A DNA stretch of 64,000 nt, from positions 10,369 through 74,368 of the forward strand of contig JAZKBV010000001.1 in NCBI GenBank assembly GCA_040388415.1, given 5' to 3'. How positions within the stretch are numbered: position 1 is the stretch's first letter; the number at the start of each line of letters is the position of its first letter. The position numbers and the translations under genes are program-made. Origin of the DNA: Patescibacteria group bacterium. Lineage in GTDB: Bacteria > Patescibacteriota > Minisyncoccia > Phycocordibacterales > PALSA-1337. This document shows positions 37,722 through 55,854 of the stretch, piece by piece. The notes below the pieces were generated by a model that had not been told where the DNA came from, did not search any database, and saw only the letters and a list, made by a program, of their open reading frames with translations.

Positions 37722-38606
37722 ATGAAAAAGGACCAGATAATCATAGACGGAAAGACCTACATCTCGGCGCGCCGAGGTGCCGAGATTGCCGGATATTCAG
37801 CGGATTATGTTGGCCAACTCTGTAGAGCGGGAAAAATAGATTGCGCAATGATCGGACGTAGTTGGTATGTCGGCGAAGAATCTATTTTGAAGCACCAAGA
37901 AGAAGCATTCAAAGCAAATCAAACTTCATTCAAACCGAATGAAATAAAAAGTCCTTACTCGCATGCGCCTGTCAGTGTATTTCCTTTGCTTTTGACGGGA
38001 CCACATGGAGGAGCAGTCTCTGCAATTCCTCGTACTATGTCTGAGCAGGTGGTTCATGCAGCCCATCAAGTTGCTCATGAGGCCAATCGTGCCACACCTC
38101 GCGCACTTGTAGCCTCACTCGTTATTACTGCGGTGGTTGGAGTCGGTGCTTTGCTCGTGTCACCACTCTTCATGTCTTTGGATGCAATCTCATCTGAAGA
38201 ATCAAATTCAGCATCTGTTGTACAAGCTGACGGGTCAGTCAGTGCGACATCATTTATACAAAAGAGTTTGCGTGCGATTTATGACGCTTCAGTTAAATAT
38301 ACGGCGCTCGGTATTGTTCCATCTGTCACCGCTTCTGCTGATCAGACATCAAACGATGCTGATCCATATCAGGAGCTCGCGTACGGCGGTCTTGTGGTGA
38401 CGCCTTCACAAGGTACGACGACAGATGCAAAGCTCGCAAATGCTATCACCAACTCATTTTCTGACCCAGTCGAAGTTCGCAAGAATGAAAATACAAACAC
38501 AGGAGTCATCACCCCAATGTTCCGCACCGTGAAGGGACATGACTTTATGTATGTATTGGTACCAGTACAGACAACATCGTCGACTTCTAACAATGACTCA
38601 AAATAA
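37722..38606 (+). CDS. Membrane-tethered HTH_17 (excisionase-type helix-turn-helix) protein with extracytoplasmic Ser/Thr-rich domain
   Basis: The N-terminal 60 aa (YISARRGAEIAGYSADYVGQLCRAGKIDCAMIGRSWYV) resembles the HTH_17 domain. A single TM helix spans aa 128-150 and the C-terminal half is S/T-rich. It is the first gene of the giant-protein locus. Confidence 0.5.
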   Translation: MKKDQIIIDGKTYISARRGAEIAGYSADYVGQLCRAGKIDCAMIGRSWYVGEESILKHQEEAFKANQTSFKPNEIKSPYSHAPVSVFPLLLTGPHGGAVSAIPRTMSEQVVHAAHQVAHEANRATPRALVASLVITAVVGVGALLVSPLFMSLDAISSEESNSASVVQADGSVSATSFIQKSLRAIYDASVKYTALGIVPSVTASADQTSNDADPYQELAYGGLVVTPSQGTTTDAKLANAITNSFSDPVEVRKNENTNTGVITPMFRTVKGHDFMYVLVPVQTTSSTSNNDSK

Positions 38607-38607
38607 T

Positions 38608-39405
38608 ATGAAAACTCCATTCATGAACAATTTGAAGTCATTCAGAGTCGATTACGATAAGGTCTTCGCATTTATCGCTTTCTTGTCTCTCATCTCATAT
38701 TTCTTCGCTTCTTATGTCTTTGCGCAGAACATGTCGAGCACGAACTATTCGATTCCTGATCAGAGTATCAATTTTGCTGGTAAACTTTCTTCATCGACGA
38801 ACTATACTGTCGAAGATACGGCTGGTGAAGTTGCTACTGGCTTTGCTTCAAGCACGAACTATGGCATCAGTGCAGGTTATCAGCAGATGAATATCGTCAC
38901 TCTTTCAGTTGTTCCACCTTCAAATGTCATCATGTCTTCAGCTCTCGGTGGTGTTTCAGGTGGTAGTTCGAACGGTTCGACAACCTTTACAGTCACTACA
39001 GATGATGCTGCGGGTTATACGGCGACGATTACGGCTAGTTCTTCTCCTGCACTGGTCAGTGGAGCCAATTCTTTCGCTGATTATAGCCCTGCTGGCGCCG
39101 CTCCTGACTATACCTACTCGATCTTGCCAACAAACTCAAACTTTGGCTTCTCAGTACAAGGGACTGATACTGATCAACGCTTCAAGAATAACGGCTCGAT
39201 CTGCAATACAGGCTCAAATACGACAGCGACTACATGCTGGGACGGTCTCTCGACCTCACCAAAGACCATTGCTGGTCGTACAACGAACAATACGCCATCA
39301 GGAACGCAGACGGTGTTGTATTTCCGCGCAGCAACCGGGTCGAACCATATTCAAGTTAATGGCACCTATGTTGCAACAACAACACTGACCGTGACCCCGC
39401 TATAA
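38608..39405 (+). CDS. Secreted protein, member 1 of a 3-copy paralog family in this window (signal anchor, Ser/Thr/Asn-rich beta-rich body, conserved Cys pair)
   Basis: It shares blocks with 59815..60519 and 61594..62289, including MSSALGGVSGGSSNG...TTDDAAGYTATITASSS, FKNNGS.CNTG...C and a C-terminal TYVATTTLTVTP. It has an N-terminal hydrophobic helix. Confidence 0.6.
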   Translation: MKTPFMNNLKSFRVDYDKVFAFIAFLSLISYFFASYVFAQNMSSTNYSIPDQSINFAGKLSSSTNYTVEDTAGEVATGFASSTNYGISAGYQQMNIVTLSVVPPSNVIMSSALGGVSGGSSNGSTTFTVTTDDAAGYTATITASSSPALVSGANSFADYSPAGAAPDYTYSILPTNSNFGFSVQGTDTDQRFKNNGSICNTGSNTTATTCWDGLSTSPKTIAGRTTNNTPSGTQTVLYFRAATGSNHIQVNGTYVATTTLTVTPL

Positions 39406-39411
39406 ACCGAT

Positions 39412-42400
39412 ATGAAGCATTTTATCTACACAACTCTCGTACTTGTCGGACTCTTCACACAGAGCGCCTTTCCAGTACGTGCATCAGTTGGTAGTACGTT
39501 CACTGCTTCATTCACCACGACTGGCGTTGTAGATTCGATCGCTCCTACGACACCAGTTGGAGTAACAGCGACTCCAGTGTCTCAGTCACAGATCAATCTT
39601 TCATGGACACCTTCAACTGATAACATTGGTGTTGCCGGATATGTCATCTTCCGCGATGCATCTGCGGTTGCTACAACATCAGTTGCATCATTTGTTGATA
39701 CCGGATTGGTCGCAAGCACAACATACACATATGAGGCGCAAGCATTCGATACATCATTTAATTATTCAAGTACATCAGCTGCAGTATCTACGACAACACT
39801 TCCGGTTCCTCCAGTCATCGTGGCTACGTCAACGCCGACAACCTCACCAGTAGTTTCTGGTGGCACTTCAGGTACACCATTTATCCATGGATTGAACATT
39901 GCAGTGCAACCAACCGAGGCTTCGGTCACATTCAATACTGCACGTCCAGCGCGTTCAACTATCTCATGGGGTACAACATCAGATCTCGAAGGAGGTTCGA
40001 TCACCAGTATTTTGTACGATACAACACATGCAGTCACTATTTCGAATCTCGTGCCCAATACGCACTACTTCGCACGCATCACTGTAGTCGACGCACGTGG
40101 CAATCAGTTTGCGTCTTCGATCGAATTTGTCACGCCAACTCTCATATATTCACCACTCGTCAACCCATCTAACTTCAGCGCACAGTTCGCGACTGTCGGA
40201 CGCACCGGAGTCAATCTCACCTGGACAAATCCAAACGATGCTCGTTTTGACTCTGTGCGCATCGTTCGTTCTGAAAGCTTCTTCCCACGCGATCAGTTTG
40301 ACGGCGTGCTCATATATGAGGGTGCACGCGAATCGTTCTTCGATGCAACAGCTATTCCTGGCAAGACATACTACTACGCTATTTTTGCAAAGGATGCGAA
40401 CGGTGCATATTCATCAGGTGCATTGGCACAGGCTTCATCGGTTGTCGGCACAAATCCATTCGTCACTGCGCCACAAGCTGGCTATGTCGATCCGCTCATC
40501 GCACGTTTGACGATCGCTGACTTTGAATTCATCCAGCAGGGCAAAGATCTCATGGTGAATGGTACAAGCACGGTCATGATCAACGGTATGAACAACCTCA
40601 CGATCCGTTTGCCCTACAACAAAGTTCCTGAAGTGTTGAAGACGATCGCAGTTTCTCTCACTGATCCAAAAGACTCATCAAAGGCATTTATCTTCCTACT
40701 CCGCGCAAACACAGAGAAGACATACTACGAGGCAAGCATCGGTGCGCTCAACGCAGTTGGTTCATTCCCATTAGCTATCAGCATCCTCGATTATCAAAAT
40801 CAGAGCTTGAAACAGATCGCCGGTTCAGTCCAAGCTCTCGTTTTTGCTGCGCAAGCTTCTTCAAATGACACAGACCAGCTTTTGCTCTTGATCATCCTTG
40901 TCGCATTGGTTGCTCTTGTGGTCTACGTGATTCGTGGACGTCGTACGGTCGGTATGAACAAGATGACTGGCGCAACGCTTGCTCTCATCTTGGTGTTCGG
41001 ATCATTCGGAACATTCTTTACTCCACAAGCTCACGCTGCGATCAATCAGCAGATCAATTATCAGGGCAAACTAACCAATGCATCGAACATCGCTGTCGCT
41101 GATGGAAGTTACATCGCATCGTTCAGTTTGTATACGGCTCCATCAGGTGGCGCAGCGATCTGGACTGAGCTCGATAACGGATCAAATAAAGTTGTTGTCA
41201 GAAATGGACTCTTTAGTGTCATGCTCGGTTCGACAACACCTCTCACGGGAGTTGATTTCAATCAGACATTGTATCTCGGCGTGACAATCGAAAGTGATTC
41301 AGAAATGACGCCCCGCAAGGTTATCGGCACGGTGCCTTCAGCTATCGTCGCGCAAACTCTTCAGAACATCACTCCCGGTCAGTTGCTCCGCAGTGATATT
41401 CAAAACTCAACATCGACATCAGCAACATTCCTCAATGTATTGCAGAGTGGAGCAGGAAAGATTGCCGAGTTCTTTGGTCAGTCGAGTTTCAGTGTATTCT
41501 CACTTCTTTCAAATGGAAATGTTGGCGTCGGTACATCGACACCAGGTTCACGTTTTGCTATCGCAGGTGCAGCTGGCGCGACCACAGCGCTCTTTAGCGT
41601 TTCAACGTCGACATCAGGTTTTGCGACAACAACGACATTCCAAATCGATCAGAACGGTAGCCTCGCTCTCAGAAATGGCGCGACACTCACATTGAACAAT
41701 TTAAACGGTCCATTGCAGGCGAACAACGGCGTTGTATCAGCGACATCATCAGTAGGTGTGTTGTATGGAGGTACTGGAATTACGACAGCTCCAGCGTACG
41801 GCAACCTCTTGATTGGAAATAACACAGGAGGTTACACGCTTACTGCGACATCTTCACTTGGTCTCGCCAACTTAACTGCAACAAATAGTACCCTCACATT
41901 TTCAGGTGCATATAATGGAAGTACTGCTCGCACAGTTGGTATCAACTTGGCTAATTCAAATACATGGACAGTCAATCAAGCATTTAATGCAAATGATAGT
42001 ACATCTGGCTCTATAAAAATTCAAAACGGTTCAGTCACTTCGAATTCGGGAGTTATCGGTATCGCAGGTTCATCAAATGCGCTCGCCACTGGAGCGGCGT
42101 CAGGGGATTTTGTGCTCAGTACAGATTTTTCTAATATTATCTTCTCGGCAAAGAGCGGGTCACGATCTGACATCTATATCAGAAGTAGTGATGGATATGT
42201 CGGCATCGGTACCACCTCACCATTTGCAAGACTTTCAGTCGACGGTCGCGGTGTCTTCAATCAAGATGTCCGTGCTGATTACTACACAGCAACTTCAACC
42301 TCGATCGCTTCAACTTTCCCATATGCTTCAACAACTGCTCTTACAGTTGCAGGTACAAATGGTCTTACGGTTGGTACATTGAATGGTCCTCTCCAAGCAA

Positions 42401-45400
42401 ATAACGGAACAGTTTCAGCAACCTCATCAATTGGTGTTCTCTACGGTGGCACTGGACTCACCACTGCTCCTACGTATGGCCAAGTGCTCGTAGGTAATGC
42501 TCTTGGTGGTTATACGCTTACCGCGACATCTTCACTCGGTTTCCCAGTTGGCGCTGCATATCCATTCACCTCACTCACCAACTATGGTGCAACTAACCAA
42601 GCAACCACGGGCATCGCATGGTTCCAGAATGGGTTGAATGCAAGTTCGACATCGCACTTTGTGAATGCATCTACCACCGCGCTCACTGTCGCAGGCAACC
42701 TCTATGTTGGCTCACTCAGTGGCCTCCTCCTTGCAACTAACGGCACAGTTTCATCAGTCTCAACTTCATCACTTAACCTTTCAATACCTCTCGCTTCAAC
42801 AACAGGAACACTTGGTGTTGCAAACGGCGGCACAGGGGCAACGGCCTTCGGACAAGGATGGATCTACTCAGTCGGTGGCACCGGAGCATTGAGTGCTTCT
42901 ACAAGTCCAACGGTTACATTCCTTTATGCAACTTCAACCTCGATCGCCTCAACCTTCCCATACGCTTCAACCACAGCGCTCACCGTGTCAAACGGCGCAG
43001 GATTCTTCCTCGGCTCACTCAACGGCCCACTCCAAGCAAATAACGGAAAGGTAAGTGCAACCTCATCAGTTGGTGTTCTCTACGGTGGCACCGGACTCAC
43101 AACAGCCCCTTCATATGGCAATATCTTGGTTGGTAATGCTCTCGGCGGGTATACGTTGACCGCGACTTCATCTCTCGGCATCACAGGTGTATCAGGTGGC
43201 ACCGCAGGCATGCTCACCTCATGGACTGGCGGTTCAACTCTCACTGCAACTGGTACTCCAACAGCTGCTGCATACTATGCTTCATCGACGACTGCGACAT
43301 CAACGTTCATGGGTGGTTTCGTTGCTGGCACGAACGGACTGACGGTGCTTCAGAATGGCAATGTCGGCATTGGAAATACAGCTCCACTTAATAAGTTCGA
43401 TGTGACCGGCAGTTTTAATTCGCAGTCACTAGATGGACAATCGATCAGAAACAATGATTCAGAAGGCATCGTTCTCGATGATGGCGGCAATGGGACAGGA
43501 ATCAGGCTTACCTCGTTGGGCACTGAATTTAGAGTCGATGGCAATAATGGCGCTTTCTTGTTCAATTCTGGAAACGTCGGCATCGGCACGTCATCACCAT
43601 TCACGGCTCTCTCAGTCATGGGTAATGGATATTTCGCAGGCAATGTCACCGCATCAAACTTCACTGCAACATCTACAACAGCGACAAGTACCTTCCCGAT
43701 CTTGAGACAAGGTGAAATCGCTATCATCGATCCTCTCGGAAGTGCAAAGTATGTCGTTGCTACCACCTCAACTGATGTAGGACGCGGAAATGCTTTGAAG
43801 TATGCTGTTTCGATCGCCCAAAACGGTTCTTCGATATACCTCGCATCTACGACGTATGATCTCGGAAACTCGACCCTGGATTTGAGTCGATTGAATACAT
43901 TTTTTGTTCATCTGCATGGTGCTGGCAAGTATAGTACAGTCATCAAGAGCACTGCCACATTTGGTGTTCTCGATATCAATTCAGGCGAAGAGATAACAGA
44001 TCTGTCTGTCATAAATCCAAGTTATATCGGTATCAATTCTATAGAAGCATTCCGTAATGTTCTTATAAAGGATGTTTACATTCTAGCGGGAACAGTGGGT
44101 ATGTCATTGACGCCTGATAGAGATGGAACTGGCTACATAGAGAACGTAACGATCGATTCAAAGGGCGATGGCATACAAATGGCAAATGGAGTCTATGACA
44201 GCACTATGATGAGGATCTTCATACACGATTCCGATATCCGTGGAATACCAGGCGGCTCATCGACTGCGTATGGTATCAAGGCCGATGGTGTGACCGCGTA
44301 CATTTATAATACGAACATAGATATGTCAGCGTCAGGCGGCGCGACCTCGTATGGTCTTGAAGTTAGCGAGCGAAATGATTACCCCGGATATCTCTACGTA
44401 TCAGGCGGACAAATCTCGTCCAAGACCACGGACTTGGTGAATACTGCTGGAACGCCAGACAGTACGCTTTCTATCACTGCAAACACGATCTACGATGTTT
44501 CAAAGGCAACTGGGACACTTGCATACGCTGACGCGAATCAGATAATTAAAAGCATTTCGCATGGGACAGAAAATCTAGGCTTGGGAAGTCCAAATCCAAC
44601 ACATAAATTGGAGGTTAACGGTACCTCATTCTTTGAGTGTGGCGATGTTGATGATGCCTTTTCAGTGTACGATACTCCTGATGCTATAAGCAGACTTAAA
44701 GTTAATTGTGACAATCCATCTGTCGTTCTAAATAACCTTATGACAGTAACAGAGGGCGCTGTCGGCATCGGCACCAGCTCGCCATTCACTGATCTCTCAG
44801 TTGTTGGCAATGGATACTTCACGGGCAATCTCACTGCAACAAATATTACAGCGACAGGCACACTCAAGGTTGGTACTCTTAACGGTCCGCTCCAAGCGAA
44901 TAATGGTATCGTCAGTGCAACTACATCGGTCGGTGTTCGTTACGGAGGTACAGGGCTCACGACCGCTCCTTCATATGGAAATATTCTTGTTGGAAACAAT
45001 GCAGGAGGTTACACACTCACTGCGACGTCATCGCTCGGTCTCGGTTCAGGCACTGTCAACTCTGGTCTTCAGGGACAGGTAGCGTTCTATAATGCAAATG
45101 GTACCGCTGTTACTGGTACTTCAACGTTGTTCGTTGGGACGAATGGAAATGTTGGAGTCGGGACGACATCGTCAAGTGAAAAATTGACCGTCAATGGAAA
45201 TCTTCATTTAGTGAATTCAGCAAGCAACGCATTCGATGGATTTACTATCGATGCAAATAATGGCGAGACTGGTATCTTGCGTGCGCCAGGTGCTTCAAGT
45301 GCTGCTCTCCAATTTATTGCTGGAACAGGTAATTCAGGTGGTTACTTCGGAATTAGAAATTCAGGTGGAACGAACGGTACTGGTCAATTCTTCTTTAACT

Positions 45401-48400
45401 CAACACAACTTTCACAGGATGTTCAATTTGAAACTAATTTTGCTAACTCATATCTTGGAAATGATGGAAGCATGAATTTGAACAACACTCTCTATATGCC
45501 AGCTGGGGCGGGAAGTATCGGTATCGGAACGGATGCTCCAGGAAGCGTATTACACCTTAAGTCAGTTAATCCAACGCTTACCGTTCAAAATAACGGCGCT
45601 GACGGTGTCGATTCAATATCTTTTGTTGATGATGAAGCTGAAAAGGCATCTATAAAAATGGATGCAGGAAACAATTTGTTCAGCCTATCAAGCAATTACA
45701 ATATTGCATTGTTGTCTAATAACAACGTCGGTATCGGAACCGCTGCTCCTGCATATGCTCTCGATGTCAACGGCTTCGTGAACGTGGATGGTGCATATGG
45801 ATACAAGCAAGATGGAACCACGATCCTCGTCGCAAGCAGCACAACATTGTCTGTATTGCTTGGTGGCAATGCGGGCGCATCGCTCACAGATCCAAATGGT
45901 CTCAGTAATACCGCGATCGGTTTCAATACATTGTCTACAGCAACATCTTCGGTTGAAAATACTGCTGTTGGTTACAATGCGCTCGCAAACAATGGCACAA
46001 ACTACAATACCGCCGTCGGTACCTGGTCAATGTATGCCAATACATTTGGTATCGATAACACTGCTATCGGTGGATATAGCCTTCGTTCAAATACGACAGG
46101 TTCAAGCAGTGCTGCGGGAGGTACATCAGCGCTCCAGGCAAATACAACAGGTTCGTTTAACACCGCTTTTGGTAAATCTTCGCTTCGTTTTAACACCACT
46201 GGTTCAAACAATACCGCTCTTGGTTTTCGTGCATTATTCAACTCTCTCGGCACAGGAAATATCGGCATCGGTTATTCAGCAGGAAAGTATGAGACTGGTT
46301 CAGACTCATTCTATGTAGACAACCAAGATAGAACAAACACAGCGGGAGATAAGGCTAGCGCACTCTTGTATGGTAAATTCAATGCGACAGCTGCGAACCA
46401 GACGCTCGTCATCAATGCATCAACTACTGTCGCGCAGAGCTTGAGCGTCCTTGGTTCAGGTGCCTCATACTTCCTTGGTAACCTCGGTATCGGTACAAGT
46501 TCACCATTTACAAAGTTTGCAGTCATGGGTGACGGTTACTATGCAGGAAATGTAAAAGCTTCAAACTTTACCGCTACCTCGTCTACTGCATCAAGTTTCC
46601 CATATGCTTCAACCACCGCGCTCACTGTCGCAGGCAACCTCTATGTTGGCTCACTCAGCGGCCTCCTCCTTGGAACAAACGGCACCGTCTCGGCAGTATC
46701 AACCTCATCACTTAACCTTTCAATCCCTCTTGCTTCAACAACAGGAACGCTGGGTGTCGCTAATGGTGGCACCGGAGCAACGACCTTCAGCCAAGGTTGG
46801 ATATATTCAACAGGTGGTACAACAGCACTCTCAGCTTCCACGAGTCCAACAGTCAACTACTTCACTGCAACTTCAACCACGATCGCTTCAACATTCCCAT
46901 ACGCTTCAACAACAGCTCTTACAGTTGCCGGCACAAACGGTCTCAAGGTCGGAACACTGAACGGCCCACTCCAAGCTAACAACGGTACAGTATCAGCAAC
47001 CTCATCAGTTGGTGTTCTCTACGGTGGCACAGGACTCACTACAGCTCCTGCATATGGTCAGGTCCTCGTCGGTAACGCACTTGGTGGTTACACTCTCACT
47101 GCTACGTCGTCACTTGGTATTACAGGAGTATCAGGTGGCACCGCAGGCATGCTCACCTCATGGACAGGGGGATCAACGCTCACCGCAACCGGCACTCCAA
47201 CAGCTGCTGCATACTATGCTTCATCGACGACAGCGACATCGACGTTCCGTGGCGGTTTGAGTGTTGCTGGCTCAGCAGGTCTCACTGTCCTTCAGAATGG
47301 CAATGTTGGTATCGGTACTGCATCTCCTAGTTATAAACTCCATGTCGCTGGCACTTTTGCTGTACAAACTGGTACCGGAGGCTCAACTAGTGATTCTCCA
47401 AGCTCTGATTCTTTCACCACAACATATCCTAATATCACTGCAAACAGCGTTACTGGTGATTATGGAGGTTTCTCATTTACATTCTATGATGACGGAAGCG
47501 GTAATCTTCTTGATACTGGTGATGATCATCAGATTGGAACAATTAACTATGTGAATGGAGTAGTAAGTACAGTTGATTTTGGTGATGATACAATCGACCA
47601 AATAAATTACACATATAGTGGCACGTATGCTTTAACTACTGATTCTAGTGGAAAAGTAGGTATCGGAACACTTTCTCATCTCTCAAATCTCGACGTTGGA
47701 GGCAATGTGGCTATCGGTTCATATGCCGGAACAAATGCCGCGCCAACTAATGGTCTCATTGTCAGCGGTAACGTTGGTATCGGCACTGCTTCACCTGAAC
47801 AAACTTTGCATGTGAAAGGTCCTCTACTTATAGAAGGTAATCCGACTCCGCGTTTGTATTTCAAATCAAATGATGGTAACTGGTTCGTGATAGATAGATA
47901 TTCTGGACAGGAATCATACAGCGGTTATTTTGGAGAGAATGGTGACACGGGTGATTTGTTCTTCCGTGGACAAGGCAGCTTCTATTTTGGTGACCAATCA
48001 ACACCAGCAATCCTCGCCAACGGCGCGACCAAAAAAGCGACATTTATATTTGCTTCAAGTACTGCATTTAGCACAGCATACGCATCATCAACAAGAGATT
48101 TCGTCGGCACGCTCAATCTCCCAAATATCACTGGCACACAATGTCTCCATTCGGTGAGCGGTGTAGTAAGTGGTACAGGAAGCGATTGCGCATCAGTTGC
48201 ATACCCATTCACCTCACTCACCAACTATGGTGCAACTAACCAAGCGACCACTGGCATCGCATGGTTCCAGAATGGCATCAATGCTTCAAGTACATCACAC
48301 TTTGTGAATGCTTCAACAACAGTTCTTTCGGCAACAGCGATTTGTATCTCAACTGACTGTCGTTCTGCATGGCCAACTGGTGGTGGCAGTGGGGGTGGCT

Positions 48401-51400
48401 CATGGTCAACGACTACGTCACAAGTTACAGGACGTCTCGTAAATTACTCAAACAATACGACTGATATCGTCGCTATCGGCGCAAACTCAACTACAACAGC
48501 GAAATATTGGTTTGATCCAAACACACAGACATCATTCTTGTCAGGCAATGTCGGTATAGGTACAACCTCGCCATTCACCGCGCTTTCAGTCATGGGTAAT
48601 GGTTACTTTGCTGGCAACGTCACTGCCTCGAACTTCACCGCTACTTCAACAGTTGCTTCAACTTTCCCATACGCTTCAACAACAGCTCTTACAGTTGCAG
48701 GTACAAATGGTCTTACGGTTGGTACATTGAATGGTCCTCTCCAAGCAAATAACGGAACAGTATCAGCAACCTCATCAGTCGGTGTTCTCTACGGTGGCAC
48801 AGGACTTACCACTGCTCCTACATACGGACAGATCTTGGTTGGAAACAATGCAGGAGGATACACGCTTACTGCAACTTCATCACTCGGTCTTCCAACATTC
48901 CAGTACCCATTCACCTCACTCACCAACTATGGTGCAACTAACCAAGCCACAACAGGTATCGCATGGTTCCAGAATGGTTTGAATGCGAGTTCGACTTCAC
49001 ACTTTGTGAATGCATCTACCACAGCTCTCACTGTCGCAGGCAACCTCTATGTTGGCTCACTCAGCGGCCTCCTCCTTGGAACAAACGGCACCGTCTCGGC
49101 AGTATCAACCTCATCACTTAACCTTTCAATCCCTCTTGCTTCAACAACAGGAACGCTGGGTGTCGCTAATGGTGGCACCGGAGCAACGACCTTCAGCCAA
49201 GGTTGGATATATTCAACAGGTGGTACAACAGCACTCTCAGCTTCCACGAGTCCAACAGTCAACTACTTCACTGCAACTTCAACCTCGATCGCTTCAACCT
49301 TCCCATACGCTTCAACAACAGCTTTTTCGGCGACTGGAAATGCATATGTAGGCGGTGCGCTTGCGGTCGGAAATCAATACATTGTCGCAACAGGAACGAA
49401 CGCTTTCGCATCAGGATATTCTGACGGTGCCGGAGGTCTCTCGTTGATAAAATCGACAGGTGTTGGCTCTGTGGCGCTTGGTTATGTATTAAATGCAGGT
49501 TCGATTAATTCAAATAATAGCGGATCTGTCGCGGTCGGATATGCGGGCTATGGAAACTCTATCAACTCACAAGCAGCAGGCTCTTTTGCTGGAGGAAATA
49601 CGACAATCTTGTCTGGAAACATCGTAGCGTCTGGAGCCGGCTCATTTGTATGGGGCAGCAATATCAGCGCGACTCAAAGCCTGTCGACTGCCTTTGGTAA
49701 AGGGTTCACTAACTCGACAGCAGATACATTCCAAGTTGGATATTCGTCAACGCCTACGCTTACTGTTAATACTACGGGTGTTGGTATTGGCACGACATCG
49801 CCATACGCACCTCTTTCGGTTAATGGTCAGGTAGTTGCATCATACTTCACCGCAACTACATCTACTGCTTCGGTATTCCCATACGCTTCAACAACAGCGC
49901 TCACAGTTGCTGGCACCAACGGTCTTACGGTTGGTACATTGAATGGTCCTCTCCAAGCAAACAATGGCACAGTTAGTGCAACCTCATCAGTTGGCGTCCT
50001 CTACGGAGGCACAGGACTCACTACAGCTCCTACGTATGGCCAAGTGCTCGTAGGTAATGCTCTTGGTGGTTACACATTGACCGCAACATCTTCACTCGGT
50101 TTCCCAGTTGGCGCTGCATATCCATTCACCTCACTCACGAACTATGGTGCAACCAACCAAGCAACCACTGGCATCGCCTGGTTCCAGAATGGGTTGAATG
50201 CAAGTTCGACATCGCACTTCGAGACAGCACTTTTCAATGGCAATGTCGGCATCGGCACCACCTCACCATTCACTGCTCTCTCAGTTATGGGCAATGGATA
50301 CTTCGCAAATAACGTCACTGCATCATATTTCACTGCAACTTCGACAACTGCAACATCAACATTCGCCGGTGATATCAGTGTCGGTTCAGGTGGCTCAGAT
50401 GCTTTCGTTGTTGATTACTCAGGTAACGTTGGTATCGGCACTTCTACACCATGGAAGACACTTTCAGTCGCGGGCAGTATGGTCCTCACCGGTGGCTTGT
50501 ATGACAACGCCGCTTCAGCTGGTACCGCAGGATATGTCCTCATGTCGACTGCAACAGGTGTACGCTGGGTTGCGACAACAACTTCTTCGGGTACATATTC
50601 ATTTACTCCTCTCACCAACTTCGGCGCAACGAATCAGGCAACCACGGGCATCGCATGGTTCCAGAATGGGTTGAATGCAAGTTCGACATCACATTTCGAC
50701 AATGCTTCAACGACAGTTTTGTCAGCAGCAACGATCTGTATCTCAACAGACTGTCGTTCAGCATGGCCAACAGGAGGCGGTAGTGGTTCGAGCTCATGGT
50801 CAACAACAACCTCATCAGTTGCAGGACGCTTCATCAACTACTCGAACAACACGACTGACATCGTCACTATTGGCGGCAACGCAACCACAACCGCAAAGTA
50901 CTGGTTCGATCCAAATGCATTCACTTCATTCTTCACTGGCAATGTCGGCATCGGCACCACTTCACCGTTCACCGCGCTTTCAGTTATGGGTAGTGGATAC
51001 TTTGCAAACAATGTGACCGCTTCGTATTTCACCGCAACTTCGACAACGGCAACAAGCACCTTCGCTGGAGATGTCACCGTTGGTTCAGGTTCAGATACAT
51101 ATTTTATCGTAGATTACACAGGCAACGTTGGTATCGGCAGTACCACACCATACGCAAAGCTCTCAGTTTCAAATGGCTCGCAGCAAGACGGAACATTGCC
51201 ACTTTTCACTATTGCTTCAACTACAAATCAGAGCCTGTTCGCTGTTCTTGGAAATGGAAATGTCACTATTGGAACCACTTCCCAGCAATCGATCGACCCA
51301 AACAATCCTGCTAAGCTGCTTATCGACATGGGCACTAGCCAGAGTGAAGAAGGGATAAATGTCATAGGCACTGTTAACGACTTTTTGGAAAACAATGTCA

Positions 51401-54400
51401 AAAATCTGAGTTCTGGTCTTAATGCACAAGCGTGTCAGACTGCCACCGCAAACAATGGATCTGACCTGACAGGTTTTGTCTCCATCTGTGCTAATAACTC
51501 GAATTTCTACAATCCACAGACTTACAATGTTGGTGGAGGAGGTGATACATCCGTAATGTCCTTGGCCTCTGGAGATTTCTATATTAACAACGCTACGGCA
51601 AACAAGAAGCTCTACTTCATGACAGGCGGCACCGCGACATCAACAAATATCCGCATGACTGTTGATGGTAACGGCAACGTTGGTATCGGCACAACCACAC
51701 CAAATGCACTCCTTGCTCTTGTGGGTCAGAGCGGTTCAACAGGTCAGATCTTCGACGTCGCTTCATCGTCGGGCGCTTCTTACTTCCATATCACTTCAGC
51801 AGGAAATATCGGCATTGGAACTTCGTCTCCATTTGCAAAACTTTCTATTACTTCTATTGCACAAAATGGTGGAAACTCTCTCCTCACAGTGGCCTCAAGT
51901 AGCGGTTCAACTTTGTTCACTGTTCTTGGTAACGGCAATGTCGGCATCGGCACTTCAAGTCCTCTCGCAACCCTCCATCTCTATAATACAAATACTCCTG
52001 GCGCAGCGCCGTCGATCCTTATGGGAGGAAATAATGGGGGCGACACAGATTTCTGGATGGCGCGCGTCAATGATAATGATTCTACGGATAATGACTTCTT
52101 CCAGATTGGAACAGGAAATACGCCTGGCACGAATCCATATTTCAGCATCAATAGAAACGGATATGTAGGCGTCGGCACCACTTCGCCATTTGCAGTGGTA
52201 TCGATCGCAAATACACGCAACAGCGTCGCCAATACTCCGCTTTTGACCATTGCTTCAACAACGAATGGAACGGCAACCTCAACTCTTATGACAGTGCTTG
52301 CAAACGGCTCTATCGGCATGGGATCAAGTACTCCATCAAGCCTCGCAACTCTCAGTGTCAGCGGTTCAACATACTTGGGCTCAGGCATAGGAACTAGTTT
52401 GACTATCCACTCAGGTATCATCAACTATCCGACACAGGCAACAAGTACAGTTTTGAACGGTCTCGATAACGTTTGGTCTATTGCCACCTCTACGACAAAT
52501 ACTCCGATCTTCAGTATCTCAACACGTTCAAGTCCAGCAGGTCTCATTGGTATCGGCACATCATCACCATTCGGCAGATTCTCACTTGAAATGGGAACAA
52601 TGGCCAATAGTCTCTGGATCGGTAACCAGGGTAGTTCGACACCTTCATTTGTCATCGCTGGTGTGAACGGCAACGGCTCAGTCGGCGTTGCGACGAACAC
52701 CCCTTCAGCGAACTTCGCATTCTCAGTTGGTGGTTCTACGTATCTCGGCGCTGGCGTAGGTAGCAACTTGACTATCCATAGCAACCTCATCAACTATCCG
52801 ATTCAGTCGACCACAACTGTTCCAACAGGAGCGTTTGGCTGGTCTCTCGCGACTTCTACCGCGACTACTGGAAACCCACTCTTCACTACTTCTACGAACG
52901 GTGCAACTTCAACACTCGGCTTCTTTGTCGCTACGACAACAGGACTTGTTGCTGGTCAGGGTATGGGTCTCCCGTCAGCTCTCCAGAACTATATGATCGT
53001 TGGTAACGGTAAGGTTCAAGCTGGTATAGCTATTGTGAAAGGTGGTCTCTGTGTCGATAGTGATGGCTGGTGTACGGCTTCAACTACTGGTCGTGTCACT
53101 GCAGTCTCATCAACACTTGGTGGTTCAGACGTCGCTGAAATGTATTCATCAGCAGATGATCTCAAGCCAGGCGAGATTGTCAGTGCAAGCTATGGCACAT
53201 CGATCGTCCGCGCTTCAAAGGATACCGCTCACTCTCTCATGGGCATCGTTTCTACTGATCCTGGTTTGATACTCGGTCTCCAGCCAGACTCATCAGAATT
53301 TGCAGCAGGAAAGTTCCCAATCGCTCTTAATGGTCGCGTCCCAGTCAGAGTAAGCAATGAAAATGGTCCTATCGCTATCGGTGATCCGATCACTATCTCA
53401 TCAGTCTCTGGCGTCGGTATGCGTGCAACCGGAAGTTCAACCAAGGTGGTCGCCATCGCTCTCGAGCCGATGAACGATGTGAGCGGAACCGTCATGGGCT
53501 TTGTTCAGAACTACGAGCACGATGATCATCTTGCAAGTTTGTCAGTTGATACGAGCGGTACACTCAAGACAGTTGGTGATGTCTGTGCATACGGCACGCA
53601 GTGTTTGAGTGCTTCACTCAACCATATCAATGACCAGTTGAGTGCATTGTCTGCAACTGCCTCATCGACAAATACTGGCAGCGATATATCGAACGTATCG
53701 AGCCAGCTCGCAGCACTACAAGCTCGTATAGATTCTCTTGCATCATCGACTGTTTCGATCGCCGACTTCGCCTCAACGACCTCACGCCTCGAAACATTGA
53801 GCACTTCAACCCTCGCCATGATCGCTTCAACGACTGCTACCACTATCGCTTCATCGACAACATTCATCCAGTCAGTTGCTCTTGCGGTCTACGACATCAT
53901 GAACTCAAGCGGTCAGGTCATCAGCTCTGCAGGAGATTGGTCTGTCCATCAGATCACCGCCGCAATCGGTAATTTCCAGACGCTCATCGCTGGTCGCGTC
54001 GAGACCCAGACAGCCGCAGTGTCAAATGGTCTCGAAATGAAGTCACCAAGCGGACAAACCTGGTGTGTTCGCATCGATGATATGGGTAATTTCCAGAGAA
54101 CACAGGGATCATGCGACACAGCAACATCGACGCCGGTCGTGTCAGCAGCGCCAGTTATCCAAACAAATCCTGTATTTGATACGACATCAACAGGAACTAC
54201 CACAACAGCTACGAGTACCGTGACTACGGTAGAAGATGTAAGCGCAAGCTCAACACCAGCGACTACAGGAACAGAGGGTGCGACCGCCACATCAAGTACA
54301 GCAACAATAACTTCAGATCCTGCACCGAGCCCAACACCTACAACTGAAACTGCGACAGCACCCGCTCCAGAGACATCAACAGTCTCATCAGTAGCACCAA

Positions 54401-54447
54401 CTGATGCAACGACAGGATCTTCGGATGCAACCACGGCAACACCATAA
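39412..54447 (+). CDS. Giant secreted cell-surface protein (5011 aa): signal peptide, 2 FN3-like domains, internal TM hairpin, beta-helix-like block, tail-fibre/YadA-head-like repeat arrays, C-terminal coiled-coil and beta-rich domain
   Basis: It is a single uninterrupted frame of 15,036 nt. An N-terminal signal peptide (aa 1-24) is followed by two FN3-type domains. A hydrophobic hairpin spans aa 493-542. A beta-helix-like block lies at 43700..44580 and NTA-I/V-G repeats at 45900..46330. GNVGIGT(T/S)SP...L.V modules recur dozens of times. Confidence 0.8.
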   Translation: MKHFIYTTLVLVGLFTQSAFPVRASVGSTFTASFTTTGVVDSIAPTTPVGVTATPVSQSQINLSWTPSTDNIGVAGYVIFRDASAVATTSVASFVDTGLVASTTYTYEAQAFDTSFNYSSTSAAVSTTTLPVPPVIVATSTPTTSPVVSGGTSGTPFIHGLNIAVQPTEASVTFNTARPARSTISWGTTSDLEGGSITSILYDTTHAVTISNLVPNTHYFARITVVDARGNQFASSIEFVTPTLIYSPLVNPSNFSAQFATVGRTGVNLTWTNPNDARFDSVRIVRSESFFPRDQFDGVLIYEGARESFFDATAIPGKTYYYAIFAKDANGAYSSGALAQASSVVGTNPFVTAPQAGYVDPLIARLTIADFEFIQQGKDLMVNGTSTVMINGMNNLTIRLPYNKVPEVLKTIAVSLTDPKDSSKAFIFLLRANTEKTYYEASIGALNAVGSFPLAISILDYQNQSLKQIAGSVQALVFAAQASSNDTDQLLLLIILVALVALVVYVIRGRRTVGMNKMTGATLALILVFGSFGTFFTPQAHAAINQQINYQGKLTNASNIAVADGSYIASFSLYTAPSGGAAIWTELDNGSNKVVVRNGLFSVMLGSTTPLTGVDFNQTLYLGVTIESDSEMTPRKVIGTVPSAIVAQTLQNITPGQLLRSDIQNSTSTSATFLNVLQSGAGKIAEFFGQSSFSVFSLLSNGNVGVGTSTPGSRFAIAGAAGATTALFSVSTSTSGFATTTTFQIDQNGSLALRNGATLTLNNLNGPLQANNGVVSATSSVGVLYGGTGITTAPAYGNLLIGNNTGGYTLTATSSLGLANLTATNSTLTFSGAYNGSTARTVGINLANSNTWTVNQAFNANDSTSGSIKIQNGSVTSNSGVIGIAGSSNALATGAASGDFVLSTDFSNIIFSAKSGSRSDIYIRSSDGYVGIGTTSPFARLSVDGRGVFNQDVRADYYTATSTSIASTFPYASTTALTVAGTNGLTVGTLNGPLQANNGTVSATSSIGVLYGGTGLTTAPTYGQVLVGNALGGYTLTATSSLGFPVGAAYPFTSLTNYGATNQATTGIAWFQNGLNASSTSHFVNASTTALTVAGNLYVGSLSGLLLATNGTVSSVSTSSLNLSIPLASTTGTLGVANGGTGATAFGQGWIYSVGGTGALSASTSPTVTFLYATSTSIASTFPYASTTALTVSNGAGFFLGSLNGPLQANNGKVSATSSVGVLYGGTGLTTAPSYGNILVGNALGGYTLTATSSLGITGVSGGTAGMLTSWTGGSTLTATGTPTAAAYYASSTTATSTFMGGFVAGTNGLTVLQNGNVGIGNTAPLNKFDVTGSFNSQSLDGQSIRNNDSEGIVLDDGGNGTGIRLTSLGTEFRVDGNNGAFLFNSGNVGIGTSSPFTALSVMGNGYFAGNVTASNFTATSTTATSTFPILRQGEIAIIDPLGSAKYVVATTSTDVGRGNALKYAVSIAQNGSSIYLASTTYDLGNSTLDLSRLNTFFVHLHGAGKYSTVIKSTATFGVLDINSGEEITDLSVINPSYIGINSIEAFRNVLIKDVYILAGTVGMSLTPDRDGTGYIENVTIDSKGDGIQMANGVYDSTMMRIFIHDSDIRGIPGGSSTAYGIKADGVTAYIYNTNIDMSASGGATSYGLEVSERNDYPGYLYVSGGQISSKTTDLVNTAGTPDSTLSITANTIYDVSKATGTLAYADANQIIKSISHGTENLGLGSPNPTHKLEVNGTSFFECGDVDDAFSVYDTPDAISRLKVNCDNPSVVLNNLMTVTEGAVGIGTSSPFTDLSVVGNGYFTGNLTATNITATGTLKVGTLNGPLQANNGIVSATTSVGVRYGGTGLTTAPSYGNILVGNNAGGYTLTATSSLGLGSGTVNSGLQGQVAFYNANGTAVTGTSTLFVGTNGNVGVGTTSSSEKLTVNGNLHLVNSASNAFDGFTIDANNGETGILRAPGASSAALQFIAGTGNSGGYFGIRNSGGTNGTGQFFFNSTQLSQDVQFETNFANSYLGNDGSMNLNNTLYMPAGAGSIGIGTDAPGSVLHLKSVNPTLTVQNNGADGVDSISFVDDEAEKASIKMDAGNNLFSLSSNYNIALLSNNNVGIGTAAPAYALDVNGFVNVDGAYGYKQDGTTILVASSTTLSVLLGGNAGASLTDPNGLSNTAIGFNTLSTATSSVENTAVGYNALANNGTNYNTAVGTWSMYANTFGIDNTAIGGYSLRSNTTGSSSAAGGTSALQANTTGSFNTAFGKSSLRFNTTGSNNTALGFRALFNSLGTGNIGIGYSAGKYETGSDSFYVDNQDRTNTAGDKASALLYGKFNATAANQTLVINASTTVAQSLSVLGSGASYFLGNLGIGTSSPFTKFAVMGDGYYAGNVKASNFTATSSTASSFPYASTTALTVAGNLYVGSLSGLLLGTNGTVSAVSTSSLNLSIPLASTTGTLGVANGGTGATTFSQGWIYSTGGTTALSASTSPTVNYFTATSTTIASTFPYASTTALTVAGTNGLKVGTLNGPLQANNGTVSATSSVGVLYGGTGLTTAPAYGQVLVGNALGGYTLTATSSLGITGVSGGTAGMLTSWTGGSTLTATGTPTAAAYYASSTTATSTFRGGLSVAGSAGLTVLQNGNVGIGTASPSYKLHVAGTFAVQTGTGGSTSDSPSSDSFTTTYPNITANSVTGDYGGFSFTFYDDGSGNLLDTGDDHQIGTINYVNGVVSTVDFGDDTIDQINYTYSGTYALTTDSSGKVGIGTLSHLSNLDVGGNVAIGSYAGTNAAPTNGLIVSGNVGIGTASPEQTLHVKGPLLIEGNPTPRLYFKSNDGNWFVIDRYSGQESYSGYFGENGDTGDLFFRGQGSFYFGDQSTPAILANGATKKATFIFASSTAFSTAYASSTRDFVGTLNLPNITGTQCLHSVSGVVSGTGSDCASVAYPFTSLTNYGATNQATTGIAWFQNGINASSTSHFVNASTTVLSATAICISTDCRSAWPTGGGSGGGSWSTTTSQVTGRLVNYSNNTTDIVAIGANSTTTAKYWFDPNTQTSFLSGNVGIGTTSPFTALSVMGNGYFAGNVTASNFTATSTVASTFPYASTTALTVAGTNGLTVGTLNGPLQANNGTVSATSSVGVLYGGTGLTTAPTYGQILVGNNAGGYTLTATSSLGLPTFQYPFTSLTNYGATNQATTGIAWFQNGLNASSTSHFVNASTTALTVAGNLYVGSLSGLLLGTNGTVSAVSTSSLNLSIPLASTTGTLGVANGGTGATTFSQGWIYSTGGTTALSASTSPTVNYFTATSTSIASTFPYASTTAFSATGNAYVGGALAVGNQYIVATGTNAFASGYSDGAGGLSLIKSTGVGSVALGYVLNAGSINSNNSGSVAVGYAGYGNSINSQAAGSFAGGNTTILSGNIVASGAGSFVWGSNISATQSLSTAFGKGFTNSTADTFQVGYSSTPTLTVNTTGVGIGTTSPYAPLSVNGQVVASYFTATTSTASVFPYASTTALTVAGTNGLTVGTLNGPLQANNGTVSATSSVGVLYGGTGLTTAPTYGQVLVGNALGGYTLTATSSLGFPVGAAYPFTSLTNYGATNQATTGIAWFQNGLNASSTSHFETALFNGNVGIGTTSPFTALSVMGNGYFANNVTASYFTATSTTATSTFAGDISVGSGGSDAFVVDYSGNVGIGTSTPWKTLSVAGSMVLTGGLYDNAASAGTAGYVLMSTATGVRWVATTTSSGTYSFTPLTNFGATNQATTGIAWFQNGLNASSTSHFDNASTTVLSAATICISTDCRSAWPTGGGSGSSSWSTTTSSVAGRFINYSNNTTDIVTIGGNATTTAKYWFDPNAFTSFFTGNVGIGTTSPFTALSVMGSGYFANNVTASYFTATSTTATSTFAGDVTVGSGSDTYFIVDYTGNVGIGSTTPYAKLSVSNGSQQDGTLPLFTIASTTNQSLFAVLGNGNVTIGTTSQQSIDPNNPAKLLIDMGTSQSEEGINVIGTVNDFLENNVKNLSSGLNAQACQTATANNGSDLTGFVSICANNSNFYNPQTYNVGGGGDTSVMSLASGDFYINNATANKKLYFMTGGTATSTNIRMTVDGNGNVGIGTTTPNALLALVGQSGSTGQIFDVASSSGASYFHITSAGNIGIGTSSPFAKLSITSIAQNGGNSLLTVASSSGSTLFTVLGNGNVGIGTSSPLATLHLYNTNTPGAAPSILMGGNNGGDTDFWMARVNDNDSTDNDFFQIGTGNTPGTNPYFSINRNGYVGVGTTSPFAVVSIANTRNSVANTPLLTIASTTNGTATSTLMTVLANGSIGMGSSTPSSLATLSVSGSTYLGSGIGTSLTIHSGIINYPTQATSTVLNGLDNVWSIATSTTNTPIFSISTRSSPAGLIGIGTSSPFGRFSLEMGTMANSLWIGNQGSSTPSFVIAGVNGNGSVGVATNTPSANFAFSVGGSTYLGAGVGSNLTIHSNLINYPIQSTTTVPTGAFGWSLATSTATTGNPLFTTSTNGATSTLGFFVATTTGLVAGQGMGLPSALQNYMIVGNGKVQAGIAIVKGGLCVDSDGWCTASTTGRVTAVSSTLGGSDVAEMYSSADDLKPGEIVSASYGTSIVRASKDTAHSLMGIVSTDPGLILGLQPDSSEFAAGKFPIALNGRVPVRVSNENGPIAIGDPITISSVSGVGMRATGSSTKVVAIALEPMNDVSGTVMGFVQNYEHDDHLASLSVDTSGTLKTVGDVCAYGTQCLSASLNHINDQLSALSATASSTNTGSDISNVSSQLAALQARIDSLASSTVSIADFASTTSRLETLSTSTLAMIASTTATTIASSTTFIQSVALAVYDIMNSSGQVISSAGDWSVHQITAAIGNFQTLIAGRVETQTAAVSNGLEMKSPSGQTWCVRIDDMGNFQRTQGSCDTATSTPVVSAAPVIQTNPVFDTTSTGTTTTATSTVTTVEDVSASSTPATTGTEGATATSSTATITSDPAPSPTPTTETATAPAPETSTVSSVAPTDATTGSSDATTATP
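46622..46920 (+). repeat. Intragenic near-identical repeat, copy A (~300 bp) within giant gene
   Basis: The first ~260 nt are identical to 49028..49326 and the remainder differs at only a few positions, by my direct comparison. A more divergent copy (~85-90% identity) lies at about 42670..42980. Confidence 0.8.
49028..49326 (+). repeat. Intragenic near-identical repeat, copy B (~300 bp) within giant gene
   Basis: It matches 46622..46920, 2.4 kb upstream. Confidence 0.8.
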
Positions 54448-54468
54448 AAATAAGATATAATACTGTAC

Positions 54469-55335
54469 ATGAAAAAAATACTCTTTACTGTATCGCTCAT
54501 GCTCATCCTCTCAACGGGAGGCAATTATGCCTATGCGCTTGAAGATATTACTACCGGACTTGTCGCGCACTATACATTTGACGAGGGAACTCGATATGCC
54601 ACTGTTATTGATAGCTCTGGAAATAGTCATGATGGAACACCTCAAGGCAACGGTCCTTTTCAGCCGCAATATTCTACAGATACGCCGATCAATACCTATT
54701 CATTATCGTGTAATCAAGATGCACAGCAGGGTGAGGCAGTTAACGTAGGAAATTTCCTTGATAATGATCCAACATTTACCGTATCACTTTGGTATAAGGG
54801 TCATGCCATGGGACAAGACGAAATGATTATCGGTAAGTGGAGTCCAGGCGGTCAGTCCACTGGAGCAGGGTGGGGAATGATGCAGTTCATTAGCGGCGAA
54901 AATCTGATTGACGGTCAGCTTCAAGATCCAGGAGGAGCGAACTGGGTCGAGCAAAATTTTTCGCAGACGCAGGATAACTTGTGGCATCATCTCGTTATGG
55001 TTACAAATGGAGATCTTACGACTGGGTTGGATGATACGAACATGACGTTTTATATCGATGGAGTAGTTGCGACTATTGATTATGTCCTTGGTGGTGGTCA
55101 CGGAACTGTTCATTCATTTACAAATAGTAATGATATTATTTTGTGTGGATCACAGGGCGGTCAACCGACGCTCGAAGGTCAAATCGCTGATGTTCGTTTG
55201 TACGATAGGCCGCTCACAGGGGCGCAAGTTACAGCGCTCTATAACAAGCAGGGTAGCGGGGCGCCTCAATATAAGACAAAGATCTCTACATTACGTCGTT
55301 TTGCGGTCAAAGTTGGAAGGTATTTTCACTTCTAA
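54469..55335 (+). CDS. LamG-like jellyroll (concanavalin A-like lectin) domain protein, secreted
   Basis: It has a signal peptide and LamG_3-like blocks (FTVSLWYK...WHHLVMV...FYIDGV...VRLYDRPLT). It lies 22 nt after the giant gene, with TATAAT directly upstream. Confidence 0.7.
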   Translation: MKKILFTVSLMLILSTGGNYAYALEDITTGLVAHYTFDEGTRYATVIDSSGNSHDGTPQGNGPFQPQYSTDTPINTYSLSCNQDAQQGEAVNVGNFLDNDPTFTVSLWYKGHAMGQDEMIIGKWSPGGQSTGAGWGMMQFISGENLIDGQLQDPGGANWVEQNFSQTQDNLWHHLVMVTNGDLTTGLDDTNMTFYIDGVVATIDYVLGGGHGTVHSFTNSNDIILCGSQGGQPTLEGQIADVRLYDRPLTGAQVTALYNKQGSGAPQYKTKISTLRRFAVKVGRYFHF

Positions 55336-55524
55336 TATGATTGTTCTAGTAAAATAATGGCTCTGTGTAGGGTTTATTTGGCGTTTACGCCACTTGCTTT
55401 TTGTCTATAGATATGCTATACTACTCTCGCTGTATGTTTCTCGTCACATACGCGTTAGCATTAACGACTGAGAGCTCCGCTAGCGCGTTACTGTATAAGT
55501 GATTCGTTGCGGGTAATAAAAGAA

Positions 55525-55776: not shown

Positions 55777-55854
55777 TTTATTACTCTTCTGGTACGCTTA
55801 ACAAAAATACTCACAGCAATGTGAGTATTTTTGTTTGTCCGATTCTTCTAACTC

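Follow-up and report, generated by a model that had tools for sequence, protein, structure and literature searches.

The window analysed here, a stretch of 64,000 nucleotides (nt) of Patescibacteria DNA, carries on its forward strand, at 39412..54447, a gene in whose interior long blocks of sequence recur. According to the open reading frame (ORF) list and the translation of the window, it is one single ORF of 5011 amino acids (aa), predicted to encode a surface fibre built of modules in a bacterium of Paceibacteria type (Patescibacteria). A sequence-only reading of the locus had taken the blocks for recent duplications that imply ongoing recombination. This raises the question of how old the copies really are, and by which process their similarity has arisen or is maintained. 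Judged by their codon differences, most of the repeated modules are old and held by strong purifying selection, and a single pair is recent. As explanation of the locus as a whole, we consider it likely that the gene encodes a modular surface fibre which evolves by duplication, purifying selection, occasional gene conversion and reshuffling.

Modules were defined by comparing the gene with itself and by hidden Markov models (HMMs) built from the copies. Five kinds were found, i.e., seven copies of A, five of B, three of C, two of D and two of E, numbered in the following in their order along the gene and all situated on the forward strand. The copies of module A (GPLQANNG...GGYTLTATSSLG, 56 aa; copy 1 located by regular expression and coordinates) are situated at 41695..41862, 42373..42540, 43012..43179, 44872..45039, 46951..47118, 48721..48888 and 49933..50100, with A2 closest to A7 (89% nt identity). 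Module B (YPFTSLTNYGATNQATTGIAWFQNGLNASSTSHF) is found at 42559..42660, 48202..48303, 48904..49005, 50119..50220 and, as a variant beginning with YSFTPLTNFG, at 50596..50697; B4 exhibits 95% nt identity to B1, and the encoded protein is identical. Module C (VAGNLYVGSLSG...GVANGGTG...FPYASTTA) occupies 42665..42981, 46604..46920 and 49010..49326, module D (the Cys-containing block ICISTDCRSAWPTGGGSG...) 48307..48543 and 50701..50937, and module E (ITGVSGGTAGMLTSWTGGSTLTATGTPTAAAYYASSTTATSTF...) 43183..43356 and 47122..47298.

Within the gene, 25 repeats are exact over 24 nt or more, which is not attributable to chance, whereas the rest of the window contains no copy of the gene sequence, neither as DNA nor as protein. 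The repeats are dispersed, with copies 477-7560 nt apart, and Tandem Repeats Finder reported no array at all. A head-to-tail array of near-identical units, as expected for a tandem-repeat adhesin, is thus not present in the gene, and this class of protein was rejected for lack of tandem repeats. Several modules recur as parts of larger blocks: 42197-42977 and 48548-49322 (a 780-nt block) share 82% DNA identity, 42665-43416 and 46604-47358 share 80%, 42280-42659 and 49843-50219 share 89%, and 48200-48651 and 50594-51045 share 78%.

Concerning the individual repeats pointed out by the sequence-only reading, the first one is borne out: shifted by 2406 nt, 46622-46920 agrees with 49028-49326 in 296 out of 299 bases, with a longest exact run of 258 nt, and blastn gives 97.8% for the entire modules C2 and C3 (46604-46920 and 49010-49326). 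The third copy, C1, put at 85-90% by that reading, is more diverged, since 42665-42981 reaches only 82% in DNA (261-263 of 318 positions; 81-82% nt identity to C2 and C3) and about 88-89% as protein; it differs from the other C copies by 33-35 synonymous and 11-12 non-synonymous codon differences over 106 codons. The block YPFTSLTNYGATNQATTGIAWFQNG(L/I)NASSTSHF does occur five times, starting at nt 42559, 48202, 48904, 50119 and 50596, the fifth being the variant, and the repeated B block (the YPFTSLTNYGATNQ block) comprises 34 aa. Equally, the Cys block ICISTDCRSAWPTGGGSG is found twice, starting at nt 48340 and 50734. A further pair, given as 42990..43320 and 46990..47250, is near-identical as protein, but its DNA identity is only 79% (89% over 43190-43320, which belongs to E1 and is compared with the matching part of E2); 42990-43320 actually aligns with 46929-47259, at an offset of 3939 nt.

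The ages of the copies were assessed from Nei-Gojobori estimates of synonymous (dS) and non-synonymous (dN) divergence. While dN ranges from 0 to 0.21 across all module pairs, dS amounts to 0.02 for C2/C3, 0.25 for B1/B4, 0.35 for A2/A7, 0.39 for B1/B2 and 0.62 for C1/C2, and it is saturated for many A pairs. Such synonymous divergence, from 0.25 to saturation, together with the low amount of amino-acid change indicates old copies under purifying selection, such that the notion of recent duplication holds for C2/C3 only. Instructive in this respect are B1, B3 and B4, which encode the same 34 residues and differ at 5-13% of their bases, every difference being synonymous (13 of 13 among the B copies; P about 6e-9). 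One might argue that recombination does not continue at all and that these are ancient structural repeats, the DNA identity of which stems from constraint at the nucleotide level (codon usage, mRNA structure), and both the evident strong selection on the protein and the high dS in most pairs agree with such a view. However, protein constraint leaves synonymous sites free, as in B1, B3 and B4, and it cannot yield 258 identical bases in one pair when the third copy differs at 18% of the sites; moreover, both the closest copies within one genome and the rearranged orthologs described below require recombination. We give this alternative next to no credence.

The exact tract of 258 nt is situated at 46621..46878 in C2 and at 49027..49284 in C3. 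In a three-way alignment of the C copies, C3 is preceded by a B module, as is C1 (B1 and B3 are 91% identical), whereas a different segment precedes C2; despite this C1-like upstream context, the core of C3 is identical to that of C2. The two modules differ at seven positions, all of them outside the exact tract and within the first 18 or the last 42 positions. If seven differences were scattered randomly over 317 positions, a clean run of at least 258 would be expected with P of about 4e-5. Differences clustered at the edges are the signature of a conversion tract and not that of an evenly ageing duplicate, and a sharp-edged tract of identity within otherwise diverged copies is what concerted evolution leaves behind. 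From the alignment, the identity of C2 and C3 has thus most likely arisen by gene conversion rather than by simple duplication. A newly inserted C copy without any conversion would account for the 98% identity over 317 nt as well, and with three C copies only (and two full-length C modules in the ortholog of a sister species) a recent gain appears plausible. Yet the contexts of C2 and of C3 each have an older homolog: the sister gene possesses a C module at the position of C2 (t2062-C2112 in the sister, t2356-C2406 in the window), and the B-C junction of C3 parallels that of B1-C1 within the 780-nt block mentioned above. Together with the clustering of the differences at both edges, this makes a simple duplication rather unlikely. 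Concerning the direction of the putative conversion, the C module at the C2-equivalent position of the sister gene is 77.5% identical to C2, although the adjoining anchor reaches 87.4%, and the same module is 85.7% identical to C1, which is not its positional counterpart. C2 is thus unusually far from its positional ortholog, which suggests that it was overwritten from the C3 lineage; C2 would then probably be the recipient and C3 the donor, but the identities compared are only suggestive in this respect.

The sister ortholog (P0257) is full-length, comprises 4829 aa and is situated at locus L093 on contig JAWVHA010005575.1 of assembly GCA_040384245.1, which derives from the same metagenome; together with L007/L094 and L008, L093 constitutes the set of syntenic orthologs. 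The unique domains of the two proteins are collinear and share 75-99% protein identity, with offsets of P0257 of -3 aa for window residues 1-830, -294 aa for 2050-2500, -4 aa for 2650-3100 and -175 aa for 4500-5000. Between these anchors, the strings of modules differ: the window has seven A, five B, three C, two D and two E, the sister seven A, five B, two (full-length) C, two D and four E, in another order. A comparison of copy number, as had been suggested earlier, hence reveals that both number and order of the modules differ between species. Furthermore, the nearest copy of a module is often found in the same genome, e.g., for the A pairs WA988-WA3508 (0.89) and SA1522-SA3616 (0.90), the B pairs WB1050-WB3570 (0.95) and SB3288-SB3565 (0.91) and the C pair WC2406-WC3208 (0.98; equal to C2/C3), where W denotes the window and S the sister. 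In contrast, B2, which lies inside a conserved anchor, is nearest to its positional ortholog (0.86, i.e., 86% identity in DNA).

As a yardstick, dS between the window and L007 is about 1.0-1.2 (GatB, ThrRS and the N-terminus of the fibre), and between the window and the sister gene 0.63-1.26. Accordingly, copies with dS below about 0.6 diverged, or were last homogenised, after the split of the lineages, and both this yardstick and the nearest-neighbour comparison reveal copies that resemble others of their own genome more than their equivalents in the sister, as is characteristic of concerted evolution. Turnover of modules between species is therefore supported by the sequences compared, and the differences between the sister species represent ordinary evolution of a repetitive adhesin or surface fibre by intragenic recombination. 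The earlier claim of ongoing recombination giving rise to variation in modules and length consequently stands for the comparison between species, on account of the rearranged sister ortholog, the closest copies within the same genome and the relatives' own blocks of at least 95% identity; in this population, recombination may still be proceeding. The further proposal of that reading, that such variation could serve antigenic or host-range change, is speculation. The L007 protein is 81% identical over residues 1-818, and its architecture diverges beyond residue 818. The dS between window and L093 is uneven along the gene: across the anchors measured (aa 1-830, 2060-2400, 2650-3040 and 4500-4850) it is 0.63 in the two central ones and 0.99-1.26 at the ends, which could be due to recombination between lineages inside the gene.

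Homologous to the repeat region are giant proteins (1,400-4,500 aa), nearly all of them from Patescibacteria (Paceibacterota, Parcubacteria, Taylorbacteria and others), many of which bear the name "tail fiber domain-containing protein" and possess Peptidase_S74. By homology of the shaft modules, 237 proteins match at E <= 1e-20, which places the window protein among these Patescibacteria giants, and when 1.84 billion cluster representatives were searched exhaustively, 476 of them matched at E <= 1e-3. When the module HMMs were run against 256 retrieved homologs and the window protein, modules A to E were found in 115, 23, 42, 18 and 21 of the homologs, respectively, in all combinations and up to 11 times in a single protein; judged by this distribution, the modules are building blocks of the whole family and not novelties of one lineage. 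Young repeats are found in other members, too: 292 nt at 96.9% (L027), 688 nt at 94.3% (L036), 458 nt at 95.9% (L122), 785 nt at 96.8% (L136), 418 nt at 98.8% (L144) and, in L005 (ERZ1286166 contig_3625, 8251-14402), four tandem units of 822 nt at 97-98%. This last contig looks like one from a long-read assembly, given its naming and the many split genes. Taken together with the rearranged orthologs, the young repeats show that turnover of modules through duplication, loss and conversion characterises the family as a whole. The region in L005 also holds ORF fragments with Pfam matches to NYN and Intein_splicing and a Peptidase_S74 match; PF01936 and PF14890 are also listed for several other homologs, so that some members may contain an intein-like insert. 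A scan of genome contigs with the central unique region of the gene found no relative, and a search of the literature for this giant-protein family of Patescibacteria or for the sample accessions found nothing specific.

Diversity-generating retroelements directed at surface proteins are abundant in Patescibacteria, and the presence of near-identical repeats in the gene might likewise point to programmed diversification, either by such an element or by a bank of silent cassettes. The mismatches among the copies are, however, without adenine bias, and none of the window's ORFs of 200 aa or more contains the reverse-transcriptase motif Y-x-D-D, so that a diversity-generating retroelement was rejected. 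Silent cassettes were rejected as well, since no module copies are found outside the gene in the window and all copies are part of one ORF under purifying selection. Programmed diversification of either kind is accordingly very improbable.

As the reading of C2/C3 depends on the correct reconstruction of a repetitive interior, the assembly deserves particular attention. The same population is represented in GCA_040384245.1 and in the Logan assembly of SRR26324621, as fragments only: independent pieces cover 36650-42391 (one mismatch), 50195-55464 (100% identical) and 50661-55439 (100% identical). The first of them, contig JAWVHA010024418.1, stops at 42391, precisely with the first 55-mer of an exact repeat of 77 nt (42337..42413, equal to 48685-48761); this 55-mer occurs twice in the window, and an end at such a site is expected from an assembly graph with k=55. 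The assembly risk foreseen earlier is hence real. The end at 55464 falls on a 55-mer (window 55410-55464; L093 19346-19400) shared exactly with the sister contig, which ends at the same point. No repeat among the sequences compared accounts for the start of contig JAWVHA010027726.1 at 50195. Among metagenome loci with a fibre start, 56 of 81 contigs terminate inside the gene. The ends of the relatives' contigs lie on repeats in 4 of 56 cases, compared with 14 of 820 random positions, which is only weakly informative, since the second copy of a repeat would mostly be situated past the point where the contig stops. Short-read assemblies thus break in these genes, and short-read surveys will under-count members with young repeats.

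An artefact of assembly or polishing might consequently have produced the identity of C2 and C3 and possibly also the order of modules at 42.4-50.2 kb; copies would have been collapsed, or homogenised by ambiguously mapping reads, and would in truth differ as strongly as the other copies do. Beside the breaks of the independent short-read assemblies within the gene, one of them exactly on the 77-nt repeat, a strain of 98.5% identity and a sister species in the same sample render assembly harder. On the other hand, the reading frame is uninterrupted over 15 kb, with recognisable modules joined in frame at all junctions; in the assembly graph, a direct repeat with differing flanks can be traversed completely in a single way only; comparable blocks at 95-99% exist in relatives from other assemblies, short-read ones included; and the flanks of the tract are ordinarily diverged and its boundaries sharp, as for a true conversion tract. 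We regard an artefact as distinctly unlikely. The second strain itself (about 98.5% identical; L003, JAWVHA010010001.1) aligns with window 55754-59696 and 62298-64000; its structure differs after about 59696, where it carries a 472-aa WD40/RCC1 and Ig protein that does not align to the window.

Concerning the product, the setting of the gene is chromosomal and bacterial, with ThrRS, GatB, TGT, a PfkB kinase, pilin-like N_methyl and Laminin_G_3 proteins and two tRNAs, and the closest genomes by name are metagenome-assembled genomes of Candidatus Paceibacterota. The N-terminal part contains a fibronectin type III (FN3) domain at 39553..39780 (aa 48-123; forward strand; Pfam PF00041, E 7e-11, 42.6 bits, above the cut-off of 25 bits). 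From reading the sequence, it is followed at 40879..41037 (forward strand) by an internal hydrophobic helix (aa 490-507), the residues RGRR and a signal-peptide-like segment (aa 515-542, MNKMTGATLALILVFGSFGTFFTPQAHA). This stretch forms the junction of the FN3 anchor part with the fibre part, which are also fused in the orthologs L007 and L093; in L008, anchor and fibre are separate genes of 521 aa (4365-5930) and 3980 aa (6001-17943), 70 nt apart. The giant ORF resembles a fusion of two genes, the first encoding a protein with signal peptide and FN3 that ends in a membrane helix, the second the fibre protein, and the fibre half opens with its own signal-peptide-like start, MNKMTGATLALILVFGSFGTFFTPQAHA|AINQQINYQGKL, with a possible signal peptidase site after AHA. 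The protein contains 19 'GNVGIGT' motifs, and the modules are interspersed among these and several unique domains. In searches of the whole protein against Pfam, PHROGs and NCBIfam, only the N-terminal fn3 and a sub-threshold match to an exoglucanase linker were found, with no match covering the repeated modules, and a sequence search of the PDB with the protein yielded nothing significant.

The C-terminal region (aa 4497-4746) was modelled with AlphaFold2 from 16 homologs, with an overall predicted local distance difference test (pLDDT) of 67.2; in its core, aa 4573-4706 (53128..53529, forward strand), pLDDT is mostly 81-95, with one block of 10 residues at 59. In Foldseek, the top matches of this model are 3suc, the immature appendage gp12 of phage phi29, and 3gqh, its C-terminal fragment (E 4.3-4.6e-4), closely followed by trimeric phage cement proteins, such that a fold like that of phi29 gp12 or of phage cement proteins is suggested. 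PF13884 (Peptidase_S74) gave no match to C-terminal pieces of the window protein even at E <= 10, whereas the L008 relative has PF13884, and relatives bear Peptidase_S74 or Peptidase_G2 at the same end of the protein. We consider the C-terminal domain a candidate for a trimerising auto-chaperone, and the model and matches are consistent with a protein that is probably a secreted, trimeric fibre with a phage-type C-terminal domain for folding or trimerisation; a role as adhesin or in host attachment may be inferred. The type of the C-terminal domain (window 52900-53649) varies among the syntenic relatives, being gp12/Peptidase_G2-like in the window and in L093 and Peptidase_S74 in L008. This folding or trimerisation cap hence appears to be exchangeable, like the modules of the shaft.

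Under the explanation favoured here, the protein would consist, in this order, of a signal peptide, FN3 domains, a membrane helix with a second signal-like segment, a shaft of about 3,800 residues and a C-terminal domain resembling that of phi29 gp12, with the shaft assembled from 'GNVGIGT' motifs, the five reusable kinds of modules and several unique domains. The copies of the modules would have arisen in the gene by segmental duplication at different times, their protein being kept nearly constant by purifying selection while the DNA drifted apart. Homologous recombination between copies would occur occasionally, the latest event having homogenised the 258-nt tract, probably from C3 into C2, and on the timescale of sister species, duplication, deletion and conversion would reshuffle modules between the conserved unique domains.

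Several observations weigh against this explanation. The modules are outside every curated family, and the function proposed for them derives solely from context. The match of the C-terminal fold is moderate, with template modelling (TM) scores of 0.34-0.36 normalised by the query and 0.51 by the target (3gqh), and phage cement or decoration proteins score alike. The same domain stays below the cut-offs of Pfam (Peptidase_G2 PF11962, 17.1 bits versus 25, E 0.0037; XM1_gp53, E 1.5e-5, also sub-threshold). An AlphaFold2 monomer of the A2-B1-C1-A3-E1 segment, computed from an alignment of 34 rows, is unusable (pLDDT 49.5, predicted TM score 0.19). Concerning recombination, the direction of the conversion hangs on a modest gap in identity (200 of 258 versus 221 of 258 positions), and the term 'ongoing' extrapolates from one event and from comparisons between species. 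Finally, a near-identical independent protein fragment for 42391-50195 was not found among 5.8 billion proteins searched; the order of the modules in this interval and the identity of C2 and C3 thus rest on the window's own assembly.

The surroundings of the gene are partly conserved. When window 37722-39405 and 54469-55335 were compared with L007, L008 and L093, these relatives were found to keep part of the neighbourhood, i.e., GatB, two small unannotated proteins (one with a membrane segment) and the FN3 anchor with the fibre. In L007, ThrRS and a small helix-turn-helix (HTH) gene are situated upstream of the conserved block. A Laminin_G_3 protein follows the fibre in the window and in L008 and is absent there in L093, and further pilin-like N_methyl and Laminin_G_3 genes are present in the window, e.g., at 57881-58642. 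The neighbourhood may constitute a gene cluster for surface appendages. Upstream of the fibre operon, there is an exact direct repeat of 182 nt (36523-36704 and 37202-37383, 679 nt apart), by which the greater part of a small minus-strand gene of MerR/HTH type (36719 to 36462; altered second copy 37407 to 37120) is present twice. The independent short-read contig that begins at 36650 starts with 55 bases that match 37329-37383, too.

A large part of bacterial diversity belongs to the Patescibacteria, which, according to present knowledge, live in attachment to other microbes; of the machinery used for this attachment, little has been described beyond type IV pili (PMC11623550). The gene studied here offers a worked example in which conserved unique domains serve as anchors and modules appear to be duplicated, converted and reshuffled between them over the time of species divergence, in a large family of giant, phage-fibre-like proteins that lacks curated annotation. 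A more far-reaching idea, which we think rather doubtful, is that the modules form an exchangeable recognition kit common to the surface fibres of Paceibacteria and the tail fibres of their phages, with frequent in-frame recombination varying the fibres within a population. If this were true, fibres differing in length and set of modules would result, e.g., from the loss or gain of 802 codons predicted for recombination between C2 and C3, and this would tune to which partner cells the episymbiont attaches or which phages recognise it.

The comparison with known systems reveals similarities as well as differences. In the streptococcal alpha C/Rib and the staphylococcal SasG/Aap proteins, in-frame recombination between near-identical DNA repeats alters the length of the protein, and the repeats are head-to-tail arrays of nearly identical units, whereas the window gene has no tandem array and one near-identical pair only. 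The surface proteins Giant1-5 of Apilactobacillus kunkeei, of 3,000-8,000 aa, possess long internal repeats with complex substitution patterns and predicted recombination tracts, and recent gene conversion between these giant genes is not reported (PMC12863079); each of them contains many imperfect repeats of one unit, whereas the window gene contains five dispersed kinds and one pair that was probably converted recently.

The pre-neck appendage gp12 of phi29 (Peptidase_G2; 3suc, 3gqh) provides the best match to the C-terminal fold, and in both cases the domain terminates a long protein that is presumably rich in beta structure, but sequence identity is 13-15%, and the window gene is cellular, chromosomal and about six times longer. 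With regard to phage tail fibres, a 1,489-aa ORF (4476-8945) of the predicted phage contig IMGVR_UViG_3300049847_000213 (L089) from IMG/VR includes module A in full (E 8e-27) as well as segments resembling C, and this ORF is flanked by genes for a major head protein (phrog_1005, E 5e-85), a tail-fibre-like protein and a head-tail adaptor; hence the cellular fibre and tail fibres of phages (probably of Patescibacteria) have modules in common. The case of module-bearing phages also covers L090-L092. The mosaic evolution of modules in phage receptor-binding proteins (PMC10579305) offers a parallel. Differing from phage tail fibres, however, the window gene is situated in a chromosome among housekeeping genes, encodes a signal peptide and a membrane segment and has no match in PHROGs. 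The giant 'tail fiber domain-containing' proteins of Patescibacteria are alike in modules A to E, in the 'GNVGIGT' motifs, in their size of 1,400-5,800 aa, in taxon and, for L007, L008 and L093, in their neighbourhood; whereas many of them carry a C-terminal Peptidase_S74 (PF13884), the window protein ends in a gp12/Peptidase_G2-like domain and is fused to the upstream FN3 anchor.

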